64,000 nt of DNA from Ruditapes philippinarum (Eukaryota): the NCBI RefSeq assembly GCF_026571515.1, contig NW_026859463.1:1-64000 (forward strand). Direction: 5' to 3'. This document shows positions 2,640 through 48,557 of the stretch, piece by piece (position 1 is the first letter of the stretch; each line of letters begins with the position of its first letter). The translations under genes and the position numbers were made by a program. The notes below the pieces were generated by a model. That model did no database searches, had not been told where the DNA came from, and saw only the letters and a list, made by a program, of their open reading frames with translations.

Positions 2640-4307
2640 ACTTAGAGAAAAAATATTACAGAATGAACATGAACAGGACTTTCTTGAAAGAAGATGAATG
2701 AACATGAACAATTATGTAGACGTTAAATAAAGAAAACTATTAAAAATGCTATTGGCATGAGACTCCACGACATTGTGATTATCAGTCCTGCCCTCTACCT
2801 ATTGAGCTATTCAGGAAACAGATACTTAACACTTTTGAAATTAGGTCTAAATACATTACAATTATTATTATAAATGATATCCTCAACATACTTCAGGTAT
2901 TTTTCTTTGTTATAACTTACATCACGCATGCGTAACAGTGTTAATAACTCTAGCATCTTTTTTCAAAGAGATATTTTCTCTTTGAAATCCGAAACTTCAA
3001 ATACTTTTTGCTCTTATAATTTTTAAATGATGGGATTGTGTTCAGATTTTATTTTTTGATCTTTTCCATGAAAGCATCGAAAAGTCTGTTTATCTTTTAA
3101 TGACATGGTCATTATGAAGAACAAATATATTTGAGTGTTTTCTTACACCCGCTACGTCATTCCATCTTTCAATCTATGCATCCTTCCTTCATTATCAGTG
3201 TCTGCTTATTATCCTGGTAACAGTTGCACACAGTCAATTCAAATTTGACATTTGGTTATATCATACAAAAATGCATATCAACTTCAAATTTGACCATGGT
3301 TCGATGCAATTGGCAGAATAAGGCCCCTTTTACTTTGAGAAAAATAAGAAATTTTCTGTTTCAGTCCATTATCTCCCCAATAGTTCGTCTTGCTTTATTG
3401 TGTCAAGTATTTACATTCCTTTCACTTTCAGCTCTAATGTTTACCAATTTGAATAATAAGCATCAATTATGCTTTGAATCCATTTTTATTATTTTTAAAC
3501 ATTATTTTGCCCCTTCTCAAGAAGAAAAATAGTATTAATAACGGAGGCATGATATGCTTTTAATATGAAAGTATTTTTCACCATTATTTTTATTTTGAGT
3601 TGTGATTAAAATATCACAAACAATATCAACAACGAAAGGCGGTGATAAATGAACGCAACCCATACACGACCCAGCAAAAAGAACCAGCGGCAAGGAGCCC
3701 AGGCGGACCCCAAACAAAAACAGGACATGGCCCAATACAGCACGGACAGGTCATTCACTAAAATGATAAATAATTTGTAACTGATAAGGAATTAAAAAAA
3801 ACAAATGATTGCACAACAGGACCACAGAGTCAAAGGGCACATGAGATAGTGGGATGGGGGGGGAGTTAATCAAAGAAATAAAAACTAGGGGCAAAGGGGA
3901 AGATACTTACCGTAGACAAGACAACAACAAGAGACACACGCAAGAGTGTCACCAAAACAGTATGAACCAACATAGACATACATCTGAGGAACACAGAGGG
4001 CGCAGCCTTGGAACGGTCAGGAGCAAACTAATGACTGCCGGGGAGTTTAAACCGGTTAATGGTGCACCAAACCTCGCTCTTAGCCCAATAATGTTTCTAT
4101 AAGCGAGACAGTGTTAATAAAATGAATCCCCGCCAAGCGAAATTCTAACAGATGTTATGGTTACAAAAGGTTAAATAAGTAAAACACCACAATGATCATG
4201 TACAAACATATAAAAGTAAACCCAATGACCATAACAAAAGTACTCAATGTCCTTAAGGAAGACAGAGCAACAAGAAAATCACCTACAAGGGCCCGACGAA
4301 GCAAGGC

Positions 4308-4373
4308 AGAAGACGAACATTAAGACAATTCAGACCCAAAGGGCTTAAAGAACTGTCCATCATAGAGTCTCCC
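4308..4373 (-). ncRNA. SECIS-like element (type II shape) at the end of the Naiad ORF
   Basis: Minus strand reads GGGAGAC-TCT-ATGAT-GGACAGTTC-TTT-AA-GCCC-TTT-GGGT-CT-GAATTGTCT-TAAT-GTTC-GTCTTCT. This gives a 7-bp helix I, AUGA, a 9-bp helix II, unpaired AA and an apical mini-helix. The 3' quartet strand is TAAT rather than canonical NGAN. Confidence 0.7.
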
Positions 4374-6135
4374 ACTTGGTCCGTCAGATGTAATCAACAG
4401 AGGAAAGCGTAGTGTTAAACTGTCAAAGGGTTGAACACGAAGCATGTATTATGTTTTAAAATAGTAGGGTCATAACCTCTTTTAATAAAACGCTTAATGA
4501 TTTTAGTAAAAACAGCAGAAAGATTACCATGACCCAAAATCTTACGAAGTTTGTAAATCACATCGCCATAAAACCAGACTGGCAAATCCCTTGTTGCAGA
4601 CGAGTTTTTAAATCATTATTGAATTTTGAAATTAGATCAAAATTACGATTTAAAATTTAGTAAAATATTTCCTTAATTTATGATAACCCTTTTTTAGAAG
4701 CCTGCTGGTAATAAAAATATTCCGCTCGTTGAAATCCTTTACGTTGATACAAGCTCTAGCGAATCTAATTAACTGAGTAACATATACCCCGTAATATGTT
4801 GCATGGGGTAGGTTTCCATCTAAATTTGGATAATTAACTATACAAAAGTCAAAGTCATCTCGTTTGTCATAGATTTTTGTGTGAATAGAATTGTTGTTGA
4901 TAGTTATATTAAGATCCAAAAATGGTGTACTATAATTTCAAGAGTTCGTTTTATTAAGTTTTAGTTTATGCGGATAAATGTCAGACACCATTAGGTCAAA
5001 ATAAGAATTATCTAAATTAAGAATATCTGGAAGTATTATTAAATGCGACTATAACATCTTGTTGTTTATCTTCAGACAGACTCACAAAGTCTCTTTCATA
5101 GCAGTACAAAAACAAATCGGCGACCTGGGATGCACAATTAGTACCCATAGGAATTCCTATGATCTGTTTGAATAGGGTATTATCAAACCTGACATAAATG
5201 TTGTCTAGAAGAAAAGAGAGTGCTCTACAAACTTCGTCACAGGTCCACATAGTATAATGTTTAACAATACCGTTAGCAATAAAAAGCTTTGTTACAATAA
5301 CATGCTAGAAATGCAACCATTTCCGTGCAAAAGTTTTCTGAATTAAAAAAAACTAGTTTATCATTGATTAATTTATGTGGCAAAGTTGTATAAAGTGTAG
5401 AAAAATCGTATGTACTGACAGTTGAACTTTGAAAGTTCTTAATTTTGAATTTATCCAAGATTTCAACAGCATTTTTAATAAACCAAAAAAGATGTTCGTC
5501 TGTGTTTTCATAGACTTTATCACAACATCTAATTGCATGTGTTTTTATGGCAGTCAAACAAGACGTCAATAAAAAATAGAAAGTTTACTTGTAGTGCAAG
5601 ATGTAGGATTAGCAATTAATCTGGCTTTGAAAGGTTGTTTATGTAATATAGAATCCAATACATCATAGGTAGATAGTGTTCCTTTTAATTAATTTGGACT
5701 TTAAGCCGGTGCTAGGGGCGTGGTCGATAGTTTGCACTTGAGTGTACCGTCCATGAACAGACTCAATCAAACCGAGCCTGCAACATTTTCAATTTTGCCG
5801 TGTTGGCCTTTCTTTGGGGATTTTTATTTCTCTCTATTTAAGATTTGAAATATTAGTAATATGATTGTTTTCAATGACTTTTTCGGAGGCAGAGGTTTTA
5901 GAGTACGCATTAGTACTATTTAGTTTCTTATGCAAAACGATAACGTAATGGATTTGTCATACAATTATTATAATATTATTAGCTGCCTTACCCGCTGGCA
6001 CCAAAACACATTTTGAATGAAAAGCTAGAATATCCCTTTTCAGATGTCTTAAAGTAAGTCTTGGTTTAGATGGCAAAAGATGTTCATTTCCACAATAAAA
6101 ATTAATACGTGAATCAATAATCTTAAAGATGTTAC
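4345..6135 (-). pseudogene. Naiad reverse transcriptase region (frameshifted; in-frame TGA at Cys position 5957-5959)
   Basis: Built from ORF-track fragments 4650-4919, 5017-5250 and 5273-5569 plus manual translation: ...KCVLVPAGKAANNIIIIV*QIHY...; C-terminus ...GYDPTILKHNTCFVFNP...GDSMMDSS. Confidence 0.85.
5706..5836. repeat. 131-bp fragment of a local repeat family inserted in the Naiad RT
   Basis: Flanked by TTTAAG direct repeats (5700-5705, 5837-5842). Removing it restores ...SNLKVQIN.... It is the reverse complement of the repeat at about 45885-46017. Confidence 0.8.
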
Positions 6136-6171
6136 GTATGATAAAAGAAATTCAATTGATATGATTACAGT

Positions 6172-9100
6172 CTATATAAACTCTTCTGAAAATTGCCCTC
6201 CATGAAATACTTCCAGCAGATTGTAACCAGAAGCTCCTCGTTTAGTCATGCAGACTGCAAGGTGATATTTACCCGGACACCATCGTACATCCTTTACTTC
6301 ATTCCTGGACAAAGATTCATTGATGGCGGCTATGTCAACCCGCAGGCGCTTGTCATCAACTAACTTGGTGGAATGTATAGCATCAATGACACTTTTGTTG
6401 GACTGTCACTTTGCATTTGGAATTCTTCTTCAAAGCCTCTTACAACAAGACGGGCTTTTGTCTGTTCATGTTTTGTTGTTATGACCCACCTTGTTGATAA
6501 TGTATTTTGGCCACAATCTTTGACTTCTACGTATGTACCGAATTCTTTCAATTTCTGTAATTCTGCAAGTTTTGCCTCTGAGACATTATTGTTAACTTTA
6601 CAGTTCTCCAACACTAGGTTCACATTGTCATTCAACAGTTCCAGTCAACTTGATCCAGATTGACACTCTTCTTCTCTTTACTGATGTCTTCCATAACATT
6701 ATTCCAGTGTTTGTTCTTCCCTGTTGCCTTTCCAAGAACTTTTGCATGTATCCAAACATCAGTGTTTTGTGTTTTATACTGAATATTATCATTGGGTTTC
6801 AGGAACTTTCTATCTTGTGTCTGTCTATCTCTGTCAGACCCGACAATTGGTATCTCTCTTCTAGCCTTGTTTGTAAATTATTATCAGAACTTCTTGCAGG
6901 TAGTTCTTCAGAAATCCATTGTTGATCATCTGTGTTTGTCAATTCTTGCTGAACCTTGGCCCCTCCGTCTGCAACTGAACTTTGATCATGGTATTCTCTA
7001 TCCGACAAATTGTTAACTTTTTGTAGTCTATTTGGAGATACACGCACAAAAACTCTTTCGTGTCGCACAAACACTATTTTCCCATCTTGGACAACTACCT
7101 TTCCTGGTCCAAGCCAGCATTCTCGACCCTCTCTTTTGTAACAAAACACGGTCTCCATGTTCAAACACTTGTTCTAAAGCTCTTACCTTATTTCTGAGTG
7201 CTCTTCTTACTCTTTCATCAGCTTCAGACTGTATAAAAGTCCTTCGAGTTGCATGCAAAACATTTAAGTGCTTTGTAAAAGCTTAACTGCTAGTTGTTCC
7301 TTGTAAAGCTGGCAAGTTTTCGCTCATGATGTTTGGAATGTTGGGGTTCTGGCCAAAGACAAGTTGATGGCTGCTGTTTGCAAATAATTCCTCTCCATAT
7401 TTGCCCATGATAAAAGTGTCTGCAAATTTACCTTTTCATAATCTGCATGGAGCTTGGTCAGCATCATATCGTTAATTGTATGCACTCTTTCACACAATCC
7501 ATTTTGAAATGGACTGTCAGCTGCAATTGTACATAGCTGAATGTTTACAATGGAAGTAATTTCCCTTACCTCATCCGAATTGAACTCCCCTCCGTTGTCT
7601 GTCATCAAAGATCCCATCACGTCCAAATCGCCCAACCCATTCTTTCATTAAAGCATCTAAGATATTGCATGGCTTCTTTCTGTCTACCAAAGCGGACAAA
7701 GTGTATCTTGACCACATGTCTATGATGTGTAATAATCCAGCGCCCATTCCATTGTTTTTAGGTCCATTTGCAAACTTTTCGTTGAACCTGGAGGCCATTG
7801 GCATACCTATCACTGGCCTTGAAGGAGTCTTGGCATAAAGTTTACAAAGTTCACATATGCTTACAATCTGGTCAAGATCTGCTTCATACTCGGCTTTCCA
7901 TATTCAAGCGTCCTTTAAAAGTGATGCCAATCTTTTCTTTGGAGGATGAGCAAATTGTCGGTGCAGTTTCACAAGAGGTTTGCGTCTCTCTTGTGTTTTC
8001 AAATTCTCAAGGACAATTGCATACACCTTTTCCACTGGAACTTTCACTGTTTTATCTATTGGAATGCAGTAATGGCCTGATGTTGTTAAGTTTAGTGCTA
8101 CCTCTGTCCACATAATGGTCGCTGTATCATTCTCAAGATCCATCTTTATTGCTGCTTTCTTCATTGCAGTACGAGAGGGTAGTAGAGTAATATCTGACTC
8201 TACAACATCAGTGGTTATGGCCACTGCCTTTCCAGCAACTACAGCAGGTATGCAAAACTCACCTTTTGATTTCAGGCATGTTCACCCTCCAAATTTAAAC
8301 ACTCTCTGACCTTCTGATTGTAACACTTTCTCTATGTCTGTATTGTCCAAAGATTCTAAGTAATTGTCCATCCAACTTCTTCCACATACTGTACTACTGC
8401 TACAAGCACTGTAGAGGACCGCACAGTTTCGAGCATCAATCCCTAGTCGTCTGATCTCATCTGTATCATACCCAGCAAAATGAACAGCGTGGTCTTCAAC
8501 TGCATTGACTCTCTTCTCTTCATATCTTCCCAGCTATCCGGGCATACAGGCAACAAATGACAAAAAGACCCACATGATTTGCATGTCAGTGGTCTACCAT
8601 CTGGTCCTGTGGGATTAATGTTCTGTGTCGATCCCTTCTTTCGATTTTCAGTGGCAAACTCCCCTCTAAGATTCTCTCTGAGTTTTCCCCACTTCCAACC
8701 CCCCCTGTTTTACCACTGTAATTACCATGATAGCCGCTCCGTTTTGTTTACCCCGCTGCGAGCAGGACCTTTTAGTTTGCCGCCAAAAAGCTGGTTCTAG
8801 CTTGATACTTGTCTGGATACTTGATAATTCTGTATCATTGCCCTTAAATTTCTTCAGTGACTTCTTGGCTTCCTCGTTAAGTGTCATGTTATTATCATAG
8901 TTCATGCCTGTAAGGACTAACAATTGCTCTTCATTTGAAATATTAGCCTTCCGTATCTCACTAAGCAATGTCATTTTCTTCTTCTCTATCTTTCTATATT
9001 TGGAATCAAACATAGCCACATATTCAGTTATTGATTGTCCTTCTAACCTTTTGAAATCTTCAAAATCCTCAACTTTTTCCAGGCTATTATCAGTAAGATC

Positions 9101-9344
9101 ATCCTTAGCAAGAAGCGAATAAGAACATTCAAACCACCATAGCCCTTCAACTCGTCCAATGAAAGTTGATCAAATACTTTTTCTCGAATTTGTGATTCGT
9201 CATTTTCAGGAAGTGTCAATGCGACAGCATTACCTTTTTTTCTTTGCTTAAGTCAGTAATTTCTTGCCATGCCAAAAGTTCCTGCTTAAATCTCTCATAG
9301 TTTTTCCCTTTTCCTAAAACGGGAGGATTAATCCTGGTTGTCAT
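6172..9344 (-). pseudogene. Copia gag-pol, fragmented
   Basis: ATG at 9344 (MTTRINPP...) to TAG at 6172-6174, with many frameshifts. ORF-track fragments: 8666-9019, 7904-8224, 7571-7813, 7324-7635, 6799-7164, 6360-6635. Confidence 0.8.
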
Positions 9345-9426
9345 GCTGAATTCCAGGCTTGGAAGCAAAATTATTTGTTAAAACACTGTAAAACAATGAT
9401 TTCCACCGAGAATATCTCGATACGCA

Positions 9427-9436
9427 TCTGCTTCCA
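9427..9436 (-). promoter_or_regulatory. Primer-binding site, tRNA-iMet-like
   Basis: TGGAAGCAGA lies 2 nt after the LTR end, one mismatch from TGGTAGCAGA. Confidence 0.6.
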
Positions 9437-9438
9437 CT

Positions 9439-9644
9439 TGTTAACACCCACACCAGATATAATACGCCAACACCACTGCATAGTTTACACTTTATTATGA
9501 CTGCACAATAATCATTAAACAGATCATAATACTCTTGACGTCGCTAAGCAAGAACTCACCATGTCATGACGTCACAAAGACGTCACTTAAAGTTGTTTGT
9601 AAAAGAAGAGTATTCAACAAGAGATGTAAAACATGAAATTAACA
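9439..9644 (-). repeat. Copia 5' LTR (206 bp)
   Basis: Has TGTTAA...TTAACA terminal inverted ends and an internal AATAAA. It abuts the Naiad linker on one side and the PBS on the other. Confidence 0.8.
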
Positions 9645-9985
9645 CAATTATATCAAAATTACCAGTGATTATATGGCCAAACTCTGAATTACAGAATTTA
9701 GAAGTATTGCAGTCTCAGGTTGTTGGAGTATTAGACTGAATATCTATGTCAGAAACCACTTTGTTGTAATTTAATGTAATATTTCTAACAGGTTTCTTAT
9801 ATTTATGGCAAATAATTGGTATCTCGGAGTTTTTGAAGTATAAAGGAACTGAATTAGTGACACGTTTAATACGAAAAATACTTGGTTAATCGATGAAATC
9901 GATACCTTTAATAAGAAAGGTTACTTTTAGAAAATGCCTGTCGTGGTCAGAAGTGTTGTCGATATGAGGTTTTAAAATATGATAA
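9645..9985 (-). pseudogene. Naiad linker domain with CxC motif (TGA at first Cys, 9715-9717)
   Basis: Manual translation: HFLKVTFLIKGIDFID*PSIF..VPLYFKNSEIPIICHKYKKPVRNITLNYNKVVSDIDIQSNTPTT*DCNTSKFCNSEFGHIITGNFDII. Confidence 0.8.
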
Positions 9986-11489
9986 ACAACATCATCAAGG
10001 AAAGGCGGCGTTCAATGAACGCAACCCCCACCCGACCCAGTAACAAGAGTCAGTGGCAAGGAGCACAGGAGGACCCCAAACAAAAACAGGACAGGGCACA
10101 CATGAGAACATGGGCAGGCGAACCACTGAAATCATAAATAATAAGTGACTGATAAGACGTGCTGAGTATAACTTTGAATAAGATAAGCTGCTGTATATAA
10201 AGGATCTGTTTGAATAACCATATTATCTGCGTCCGCGTTTAAGATTTTCAGAGATGATAATGAAAGGGAAGTAAGATGTGATAACATTGCGTGTTTACCA
10301 GAGCGTTTTTAAGATAATATTTAAGTCGTTGACAGACAGGGTAATTTTAGATTATTCGTTTGATGTTGCCATTTCTACGTACTCCGTGGGATCGGGAATT
10401 ACGTTTACGAGTACAATGTATTCAGAATAGAAAAATATCAATGTTTGGATCTTTAGAGATGTTACCTTGTTGAAAAATATTGTCATTTAGGCCACGTGGG
10501 AAAGGCGTTTTGTAAGTTCTTGATCCATTTTAATTCTGCTAAGTGTCTAAACTAGCAGAAGCATCAGAATCATAAATTATTTGTCCCACTGGGTTGAATT
10601 GTAACATTTTTTAAATGAATGGCGATCTTTACGAAAATGTTGATATAGAAAAGTTGTAAAGTTTGTGCGATTTTTCGTCATTTATAAAAATGTTTCACGG
10701 AATCGAATTTTTAAGAGAACGTTTTCCTGTCTAACCAACATACTGTATGCCACACCCAGGGGTTGTTTTCAAATTAAAACATAAACAAAATGAGCTGCCT
10801 TTCAGTTAATATATGTATTTAAAATAATATTAAGTTCTCCCATTTACATAAGAGGTTATTGTAGACCTGTGCGATAAAAAGTTACAACATATGCACCTCT
10901 TAGAATTACACTTATTTATAGACTATAGATACACTCTAGATTTATGAGGATAATTTGTATGAGTGATATCATATTTCCTTAGAATGGTATGTTTTATAGG
11001 AGAAATCCTAATGCGTAATGAATTATGGAAGATATTAGGAGTTTTCTAGATCCCCTGGAAAATAAAATGAATTTAAAAATATAAACCCGTTTAAAACGAA
11101 AAAAAATGACGGGGTTGGTGTTCAAACTTAGGTGTTCAAAAGATTTCTAAAACTTTTAACAAATGTTAGCCCTTTGAAGTACTGGGAAAAGGTGGAATAA
11201 AATGTGTATTGTTCCTTTTTTAAGTTATTCAAAAATCATGTTTTAGTTATTTAAAATTTTTTCCGTGTTAATTTGGGGACCAAGTTAAATAAAAGACTAA
11301 AATTTAGGCCACAGTGTACACAGAAAACCCCAACAAAAAGGGAAGATTAAGAAAAAAAGGGTAAAGAAAATATAAAAAAGAACATTAGTCTTTTGAAGGT
11401 TGGACTGAAAGGGGGCACCAACACCCGAACGCCCCAAAAATCCCTTGAGGGTGAAAAATTTAAAAATTGATTTGGGATTTTAACCCGGG

Positions 11490-11817
11490 GGACTTTTTAC
11501 AGCCGCCACACGGCACAAACAACACAGTTGTGAGCATAACATATGACAAACAAGATCAACAAGGAAAGGCGGCGCTCAATGAACGCAACCTACACACGAC
11601 CCAGCAACAAGAACCAGCGGCAAGGAGCCCATGCGGACCCCAAACAAAATTAGGACAGGGCACAAGACAGCACGGACAGGCCAATCACTAAAATGATAAA
11701 TAATTTGTTACTGATAAGGAATTCAAAGATAACAAACAAATGATTGAACGATAGGCCAACAAAGTCAAAGGGGACAGGGGAAGGGGATGGGGGGTTAGTC
11801 AAAGAAATAAAAACTAA
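11490..11817 (-). repeat. Additional copy of the Naiad 3'-terminal (pLTR-like) segment
   Basis: Closely matches 3610-3887 (GAACGCAACC..CACGACCCAGCAA..GAACCAGCGGCAAGGAGCCC..CAAAGAAATAAAAACTA). Confidence 0.8.
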
Positions 11818-45884: not shown

Positions 45885-46150
45885 TAGAGAAATAAGAATC
45901 CCTAGAGAAAGCCCAGACGGCAAAATTGAAAATGTTGCAGGCTCGGTTTGATTGAGCCTGTTCATGGACGGTACTGGTAAGTGCAAGTTACCGTCCACGT
46001 CCCTAGCACCGGCTTAAGCAGTATTCGATATTTTAACATGAACTGCTAAAATTTAGAATTTTTGAAACATCTGCATATGTTTCCATATGGTGGTTATCAT
46101 GGAACCTTCAATGTGACCACGTTAGTACCATTCCATGAAAAGCGGAATAT
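45885..46150 (+). repeat. Copy of the local repeat family also at 5706-5836, 47440-47830 and 48010-48460
   Basis: GAAAATGTTGCAGGCTCGGTTTGATTGAGCCTGTTCATGGACGGTAC...CCCTAGCACCGGCTTAAGCAG. Confidence 0.8.
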
Positions 46151-47242: not shown

Positions 47243-48557
47243 CATTATCCCTCATGTATAGACTCACTCAAACTGAGTCTGCAAATTTCATGTATTTTGC
47301 TGTGATTAATGCTTCCGACGGATCACTTTGTTTGCATGATTTTTGTTCGATCAATCAATAATTGTTTTCAAATTGTAAAAAGAAAAATGAATTTGCACGT
47401 ATTAATCGGCACGTTATGAAAGCACGGAAAGTGTCATCCCTAAAGGCCAAACACGTCAAACTTGAAAATGTTGCAGGCACGGTTTGATTGACCCTGTTTA
47501 TGGACGGTACTGCCAAGTGCAAACTATCGTCTACGCCCCCTAGCACCGCCTTAAGCAGAATTCAACATATTAACATGAAATGGTGAAAATTTGAATTTAG
47601 AAACATCCGCAGATGTGTTCAAACGGCGGGTATCATGAAACCTTCAATGTGACACAGAAGTGCCATTCATGAAAAGCGGCGTATTGTCCCAAGGTAATAA
47701 AACGGTTATGAGCCTGCATATCACAGATAAGACGTCAAGGACATTAATTAAAAAGCAGGCAACATATCTTGAGGGTTATTCAACATTTTTCGAGAAGAAA
47801 TAATTGAACCATCAATCTAGAAAAAGTCACATAGTTTAAACTAAAAATACCACAACAAAAATTGTCGTCCTGAAGGATATTTAATGGTCGAAAATATAGG
47901 CATCTTTGATTTAATGTACGGGACGACTTTTAACAGCCTCCACACGGCACAAAACAACGCTGATGAGGCGATAAAAATAATAAATAAATAATCCCTAGAG
48001 AAAATAATAATCTCTAAAGAAAGCACCAACAAGTTGAAAAATGTTGCAGGTTCGGTTTGACTGAGCCTGTTCAAGGACAGCACTGTCCAAATGCAAAACT
48101 ACTGTCCAGGCCGCTAGCACCCTCTAAAACAGAATTCAACATTTTAACATTAAATGGTAAACATGAATTTAGAAACATCCATGTGTTTCAAACGGCCATT
48201 ATCATTGAACCCTCAATGTGACAGAAGGGTCATTCCATGAAAGACGAAGTATGGTCCCCAAGTATAAAGCGTGTGCCTTAAACGAGAAAACAATGGCGAA
48301 ACTAAACAAACTGGAATTTTGAAAGGGATCACAGGTTAAAAAACCCTGCATATCACAGATAAGACGTCAAAAGACAAAGTTAAAAGCAGGCAAAATAGCC
48401 CAAGAGTTGATTCAACATTAGTTCAAGTAGGAATATTGGAACCAGTATCCAACTAGAAAATAAAAATAAGTTTAGCTTTCAGTTTATTCGATAATAATGT
48501 TTCTGGGCTAAATTTGCAGACTCTGTTTGATTGAGTATGTACACGAGGCGGATAATG
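47243..48557. mobile_element. About 1.3-kb TIR/foldback-like element with an internal tandem duplication
   Basis: 47243-47288 is an imperfect reverse complement of 48510-48557. Internal units lie at 47440-47830 and 48010-48460. Confidence 0.55.

Follow-up and report, generated by a model that had tools for sequence, protein, structure and literature searches.

The window, that is, the whole stretch of 64,000 nucleotides analysed here (Ruditapes philippinarum contig NW_026859463.1, positions 1 to 64,000), carries on its minus strand a near full-length Penelope-like element that extends from about 11073 to 3609. The copy is dead: insertions at 5706-5836, about 6138-9644 and 9976-10152 split its coding region, which is also interrupted by frameshifts and stops. 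The ORF starts with a 5' piece (10153..11073) that contains the N-terminal GIY-YIG endonuclease and UGA codons at 10804-10802 and 10771-10769. There follow a piece with the CxC motif (9645..9975; UGA 9717-9715), a piece with the DKA motif (5837..6137), where UGA 5959-5957 takes the place of a conserved cysteine eight residues after DKA, and the frameshifted remains of the reverse transcriptase (RT; 4397..5705). Alignment with family copies places a fifth in-frame UGA (codon 866, 4938..4940) at a serine site of the RT after YLDD; over 5705-3609 the element matches the intact copy L048 at 89.8%. A terminal UGA (4394..4396), read as the stop, is found 20 nt before helix I of a hairpin at 4308..4373, and the rest of the 3' untranslated region (3609..4307) reaches the 3' end shared by the family. 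All these features are on the minus strand. Upstream of the element, a similarly oriented related copy is represented by part of its 3' end (11541..11816, 79% to the 3' end of L048); this is possibly a pseudo-LTR, by analogy with Craig et al. 2021 (PMC8557442, cited, like all papers below, for the passages drawn on here).

The insertion at 6138-9644 (minus strand) resembles a decayed LTR-retrotransposon gag-pol region, with zinc-knuckle-, protease- and integrase-like motifs visible by eye; neither terminal repeats nor an informative Pfam match were found in it. The one at 5706-5836 is a 131-bp mobile repeat with a short TTTAAG duplication, present also at 45886-46012, 47442-47548 and 47996-48121 and matched 57 times across the examined loci, several times within Naiad copies. 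The short insertion at 9976-10152 includes a Naiad 3'-end fragment (10098-9975, 89% to L048).

A first search of the genome returned 2,547 candidate copies. In L048 a single frame of 1,065 codons is open if TGA is read through. As read from its motifs, the translation comprises an N-terminal GIY-YIG endonuclease preceded by CX2-5CxxC, a C-terminal RT and, between the two, UDC (CxC), GPKY (GxKF/Y) and DKA; the marks of Naiad elements were defined by Craig et al. 2021 (PMC8557442). Pfam gave no match to the Naiad protein, and no Rfam hammerhead ribozyme was matched at E up to 2 in L048, L031 or L039. Family copies have a common 3' end and variable 5' ends (5' truncation), and L031 and L045 each hold two same-strand copies in partial tandem. 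By eye, Naiad_Mmer comes close in its protein N-terminus as well as at its 3' end. Judged by its sequence, the hairpin belongs, as the SECIS, to a selenoprotein-coding Naiad retrotransposon from the published Naiad_Mmer lineage.

The hairpin has type-2 geometry. From its base upwards it is built of helix I (4373-4367/4314-4308), an internal loop, the core, helix II (4358-4350/4331-4323), an AA bulge and an apical mini-helix (4344-4341/4337-4334). The 5' core strand is A-UGAU (4359..4363, AUGA 4363-4360), and the 3' core strand (4319..4322) is UAAU, with an A at 4321 where other SECIS carry G. The unpaired apical AA (4345..4346) stands 12-13 nt above the core; the family has AAA (4347-4345), of which the window copy lacks the first A. 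An earlier, sequence-only reading of this DNA had named the same elements, and all are in place on the minus strand, helix II with 9 bp. The mini-helix that it gave as GCCC/GGGT is indeed present in the window copy, but the fourth pair (G·U) stems from a private change at 4334: the 29 other aligned copies have three pairs and a G·A.

The named structure is also the minimum-energy fold (-21.8 kcal/mol, z -3.10), and none of 200 shuffles was equally stable; for the plus strand of the region z is -1.75. Together with its flanks (101 nt), the hairpin is predicted to rest on a longer basal stem that continues helix I (4387-4374 with 4307-4293, in all 4293..4387; z -3.76), and similar arms are found in the relatives L152 and L153. 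Rfam SECIS_1 matches 4371-4310 with 29.9 bits (E 0.0038) and is the sole notable Rfam match within 3000-6200. Against a gathering score of 35, the window copy thus has 29.9 bits, family A 33.0 and family B 35.6 and 32.4; most of the scanned copies with A in the core are below the cut-off (29.9-33.0), and L123 attains 35.6.

Among 11 aligned hairpins, several of them close kin, so that independent events are fewer than cells, 90.4% of cells are paired and 15 of 20 pairs have changed on both sides. None of 500 shuffles reaches the observed pairing, slid alignments stay at 40-50%, and RNAalifold recovers the same helices with 19 pairs. The covariation that the sequence-only reading had suggested looking for is there, and with the SECIS_1 match and the fold it bears out the idea of a SECIS homologue belonging to a retroelement. 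In the best 130 of 35,290 candidates, the 5' (R)UGA core strand is kept in 128-130 copies at each position, with the G and A of UGA invariant (130/130); UGA, spacing and AAA are near-invariant across family copies. One older lineage with A in the core tolerates an A·C mismatch in helix II, so selection on the hairpin may be loose.

What the hairpin does not have is the tandem G·A/A·G of the 3' core strand. The sequence-only reading took TAAT for a G>A decay of this single copy, which every genome count rules out: the A is the family state, and the family consensus itself lacks NGAN. All 29 copies nearest to the window, a set picked for this closeness, carry TAAT. Genome-wide, exact 16-mer matches (n=1,281) have A in 1,243, G in 5, T in 29 and C in 4; a two-arm pattern gives A 1,153 to G 6, an older TTGCC variant A 382 to G 9, and a 3'-anchored pattern TAAT 1,617 to TGAT 17 (n=1,634; about 99% A), very old copies being under-counted in all of these because the matches are exact. 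Among the exact 16-mer matches, T is commoner at this position than either G or C.

Copies with G in the core occur within A1, A2 and B and in older diverged families, and those inside A1, A2 and B look like back-mutations. The two A1-like ones that we examined, L053 and L054, are short and 5'-truncated. The sequence-only reading had proposed to score a hairpin restored to TGAT; natural G-core copies offer this comparison with no sequence altered, and they reach 35.1-41.6 bits at four of five scanned loci (L052 gave no match) against 33.0 for intact A-core copies. A search with the SECIS_1 profile yielded six G-core copies only, all of the same Naiad families (best 130 of 35,290 candidates). 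A third hairpin type, in L189 and L190, has an A core as well, possibly through an independent G-to-A change; the ORF part of L189 is 74-82% similar to families A and B.

Outside these families, every relative examined from another source (L152-L158, L181, L184, Mmer and Scon) retains GA on the 3' core strand. The covered Cys sites are TGA in L152, L153, L155, L181 and L184, except site 430 of L153. In L180-L186 (CBDDTI010000448.1, CBDDTI010000653.1), intact Sec-type Naiads stand in tandem arrays; they have five internal UGAs, and their SECIS is canonical (42-43 bits). The record is titled as a bacterial MAG and likely represents eukaryotic contamination.

The hairpin is located 3' of the stop of an ORF whose in-frame UGAs fall at Cys-homologous sites. 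In a set of 120 homologous proteins, the residue at TGA codons 130, 141, 430 and 568 is Cys in 23/23, 25/25, 68/72 and 85/95 cases, respectively. The exceptions are almost all W, most likely because gene callers have read TGA as Trp. The window copy keeps the four Cys-site TGAs together with the TGA at codon 866 and the terminal one. In covering copies of family A the four sites are TGA in 4/5, 5/5, 8/8 and 19/19, and in those of family B in 1/1, 1/1, 4/4 and 3/5; codon 866 is TGA in 43 of 60 A1 copies and in 6 of 6 A2 copies, and TCA in 25 of 26 B copies. No UGA-to-Cys reversion has spread in the copies examined. Two tRNA-Sec genes of the Ruditapes philippinarum genome exceed the Rfam cut-off. 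Rfam scans of L048, L031 and L039 gave no second SECIS, nor did a descriptor scan that recovers both controls.

At the terminal codon, 87 of 89 family-A copies have TGA, and family B has TGA 21 times, TAA 7 times and TGG once (n=29); L152, L154 and L158 have TAG or TAA in its place. Given these replacements, the terminal TGA behaves as a stop. The sequence-only reading had let the hairpin overlap the last RT codons, its 5' arm encoding GDSMMDSS. This does not hold in the window family because the frame ends upstream, at TGA 4396-4394; in the window copy a private TAA (4417-4415, GGA in the family) precedes even this one. GDSMMDSS is in frame only if TGA 4396-4394 is read through, and the window copy, with TAA changed to TTA at 4347, has no stop after it. 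We also rejected the terminal UGA as a Sec codon followed by a translated GDSMMDSS tail, considering the TAA and TAG of sister lineages and a peptide unlike that of relatives until DSMM. The figure of 51-111 nt from UGA to AUGA is a minimum spacing. A further reason for the rejection is that the terminal UGA is 30 nt from AUGA, compared to those 51-111 nt (PMC3753652).

Dual use of the sequence nevertheless fits sister families. In L181 and L184 the reading frame runs through helix I up to the core UGA, and relatives from databases end in DSMM-x-P-T (F-N-C-T-P-V-G-R-A-S-D-S-M-M-A-P-T), of which the window family matches DSMM only. Compared by eye with Mmer and L153, this partial match is due to an extra T that shifts the frame and a one-base loss downstream that restores it; the extra T precedes the D-C codons and creates the stop of the window family. 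The stretch from DSMM to TAA is homologous to the 5' arm of the hairpin, with AUGA corresponding to the Met codons and AAA to the old stop, and the frame has been truncated ahead of the hairpin by stops at differing places in differing lineages. With W or an interrupted ORF at sites 141 and 430, the DSMM-ended proteins seem to be Sec-type as well, and DSMM may therefore have arisen merely as a consequence of the RNA sequence; in these families, known here as proteins alone, the SECIS arm is likely coding. Database Naiad proteins in clusters P0003, P0006 and P0013, with frames that end in DSMM-x-P-T, have W at UGA sites or are broken exactly there. The SECIS might have originated from the last codons of Cys-coding Naiads. 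No closer DSMM-type family was seen in the Ruditapes philippinarum genome among the best 150 of 2,463 candidates; in the passages of Craig et al. 2021 drawn on here (PMC8557442), the motif stands at the 3' end in Mmer only, and the overlap of SECIS and stop was already known for Naiad_Mmer.

We then asked how the ORF evolves in lineages with an A core, using 89 copies of family A, after removal of 24 duplicates and of 10 rows that were mosaic, of low identity or from another family, and 29 copies of family B, after removal of one A/B mosaic. Variants present in at least three copies comprise 32 synonymous and 11 non-synonymous changes in family A (pN/pS 0.09, compared to 0.52 for singletons) and 18 and 10 in family B (0.14 compared to 0.74); shared and singleton variants differ with p 4e-7 and p 1e-4, respectively (Fisher). 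All pN/pS values come from simple counting without transition correction, on data with possible allelic duplicates and recombination among lineages. Between A1 and A2, 70 of 268 synonymous and 33 of 1,025 non-synonymous sites differ (pN/pS 0.12). The A core and UGA866 are present in A1 as well as in A2, and the two hairpins have diverged at the pace of their flanking sequence. Even downstream of codon 866, in the 43 copies with UGA at this codon, shared changes are 9 synonymous to 4 non-synonymous and singletons 38 to 69 (p 0.03). These patterns in the sequences show purifying selection on the ORF of A-core lineages.

Families A and B are separated by dS 1.23 and dN 0.095 over 422 codons. Their hairpin tracts, in contrast, are identical at 156 of 160 bases, compared to 28-35 of 40 in most flanking bins, a peak that is absent in outgroups. 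The ORF of L266 and L267 is 86-88% similar to B and 76-77% to A, and their hairpin is different, with a G core. On the simplest reading, B would have captured the A-core tract from A, the direction resting on two copies. L090 was considered as a direct ancestor of B and set aside, as it is only about 79% similar overall and L266 and L267 fit better.

Ten copies (L227, L228, L230, L231, L235, L239, L251, L216, L220 and L248) form a truncated, non-autonomous Naiad derivative, eight of them with a common 5' breakpoint. Its ORF shows deletions and a stop, helix I contains a mismatch, and AAA has become AAT; such decay of both ORF and SECIS is expected when translation no longer matters. Its pN/pS is 0.24 compared to 0.12 (p 0.07), a difference that is not significant, and we rejected it as a neutral control. 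The derivative would bring SECIS-like hairpins to new sites.

We now propose that in intact copies the hairpin is a functional, possibly weaker, non-canonical 3'-UTR SECIS that recodes four to five UGAs, a reading to which we give about two chances in three. The family has spread with the A core while conserving a UGA-bearing protein, so the altered signal likely still works. In our mapping, the 5' UGA would supply G1b and A2b, and the 3' GA would supply G2n and A1n. A change of G to A at 2n would then place A·A at position 2b·2n of the kink-turn, giving a core of G·A and A·A in place of G·A and A·G. This A·A may be isosteric enough with A·G to keep the kink-turn, as in Kt-23. SBP2 or SBP2L would bind the A-core hairpin, perhaps more weakly; once SBP2 is bound, the four to five in-frame UGAs would be recoded as selenocysteine, and the ribosome would reach the RT through them.

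Precedents exist for such a kink-turn. Two k-turns, Kt-23 of Thelohania solenopsae and SAM-I G2nA, have A at 2n, so that 2b·2n is A·A in them too (Huang and Lilley 2014, PMC3985660). Both fold as k-turns, and Kt-23, a natural example, binds L7Ae, of the same family as the RNA-binding domain of SBP2. They belong, however, to rRNA or a riboswitch and have a 3-nt bulge instead of the SECIS internal loop, and SBP2 is stricter than L7Ae or Snu13p (PMC1874613). The same source reports that in SBP2 SELEX every winner had the G of the A.G pair, even when selected from a fixed U. According to PMC2761289, every eukaryotic SECIS conserves the tandem GA pairs, which SBP2 and L30 need for binding; PMC3706390 likewise calls them universal and required, and SECISearch3 discards cores without GA-AG (PMC3753652). 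Also counting against a working A core are the GA of all examined outside relatives, the Rfam scores of most scanned A-core copies, the A·C mismatch in the older lineage and the fact that copying in trans does occur, as the non-autonomous derivative demonstrates.

A wider scenario includes this recoding and has, in our estimate, an even chance of being right. An A-core SECIS would drive processive insertion of up to five Sec, one of them in the RT catalytic domain. Its A·A core would have persisted through more than 25% synonymous divergence, and, through recombination, been captured by a second family in place of a canonical G-core hairpin, this second family then amplifying.

The requirement for the GA tandem in the literature (PMC2761289, PMC1874613) also speaks for a less probable alternative. 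Here the UGAs of the ORF would be recoded through another, unrecognised RNA signal, or through near-cognate decoding or some other route that needs no SECIS; the hairpin would have a different role, for example in binding RT or RNP at the 3' end. Loss of SBP2 reduces mammalian Sec insertion without abolishing it (PMC8704476), and the long extra basal stem predicted beneath the hairpin and the near identity of its tract in families A and B are compatible with such a role. However, UGA, spacing and AAA stay near-invariant, whereas the derivative has AAT and a mismatch in helix I. Moreover, the absence of spreading Cys codons in the copies examined and the lack of any other SECIS-like signal in L048, L031 and L039 or in the descriptor scan argue against it, and four or five serial UGAs would make plain leakage negligible.

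We consider it improbable that the A-core SECIS is dead and its families are copied in trans by a rarer Naiad protein that has a G core or codes for Cys. The genome does contain 17 G-core matches, a truncated derivative with a damaged ORF was evidently amplified in trans, and the genome searches score best candidates only and leave out Cys-type Naiads. Yet RNAs that are copied passively should lack purifying selection on their ORF, which three comparisons detect. In addition, G-core copies turn up here and there in A1, A2, B and old families, L053 and L054 are short and 5'-truncated, G is rarer than T at the core site (5 vs 29), and the six found with SECIS_1 among the best 130 of 35,290 candidates are of the same families.

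Very improbable, finally, is a G function restored by A-to-I RNA editing at 4321, or unassembled G-core masters giving A-core progeny by a site-specific change: the core A does sit in a double-stranded hairpin in UA context and ADAR activity occurs in molluscs, but inosine lacks the 2-amino group that the sheared G·A pair uses, and in four presumed RNA runs G appears only in one divergent contig (depth 5.7 of 87.4, X3), the deepest contigs across the core site carrying A, likewise in X1 and X2 among the matches listed. These runs consist of contigs, two of them on record as RNA, and give no strand, level or editing rate; as contigs drop rare variants, low-level editing is compatible with contigs that show A only.

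Selenoprotein Naiads with a stop-adjacent SECIS have already been published (Craig 2021, PMC8557442), in the one paper on them that the literature searches turned up. Naiad_Mmer (Mercenaria mercenaria) and Naiad_Scon likewise combine an N-terminal GIY-YIG with a C-terminal RT, and share with the window family the UGAs at the first CCHH Cys, at the Cys before GIY-YIG and at the Cys eight residues after DKA, as well as a SECIS just past the UGA stop that overlaps the first non-UGA stop. By eye, the Mmer 3' end is colinear with the window hairpin, with the same 37-nt spacing between core strands. Scon has a UGA also at an unconstrained site in RT6(D), and the window family has a further one at the CxC motif, which is Cys in the Mmer-like L153. 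The 3' core strand is TGAT in Mmer and GGAT in Scon, in contrast to the TAAT fixed here. The mussel Naiads of the same study are not flagged as selenoproteins in the passages drawn on.

Compared to eukaryotic SECIS at large (RF00031 SECIS_1; core UGAN/KGAW, Mariotti et al. 2013, PMC3753652), the window hairpin has the same helices, loop, AUGA, AA, mini-helix, site 3' of the stop and covarying stems. It departs from them in its 3' core UAAU, where an A·G sheared pair becomes A·A, and SECISearch3 would filter it out. In the literature searched, we came across neither a natural nor a tested GA-to-AA change in the 3' SECIS core; primary mutagenesis papers, which may hold such data, were outside this search.

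Tandem G·A pairs are treated as the single invariant of eukaryotic SECIS, and search tools filter on them. A retrotransposon keeps a dated record of working templates, so about 1,600 A-core copies along with a selected, UGA-riddled ORF amount to an unusual natural experiment. With relatives in databases apparently fragmented or read with W at UGA sites, selenoprotein Naiads seem to be more widely distributed than the four families published so far. Should the A core work, the minimal SBP2 site would be redefined and a tolerance of SBP2 or SBP2L suggested in the host mollusc; searches filtered on GA would be missing selenoproteins. Definitions of SECIS, searches for mollusc selenoproteins and models of SBP2 recognition would then need revising.
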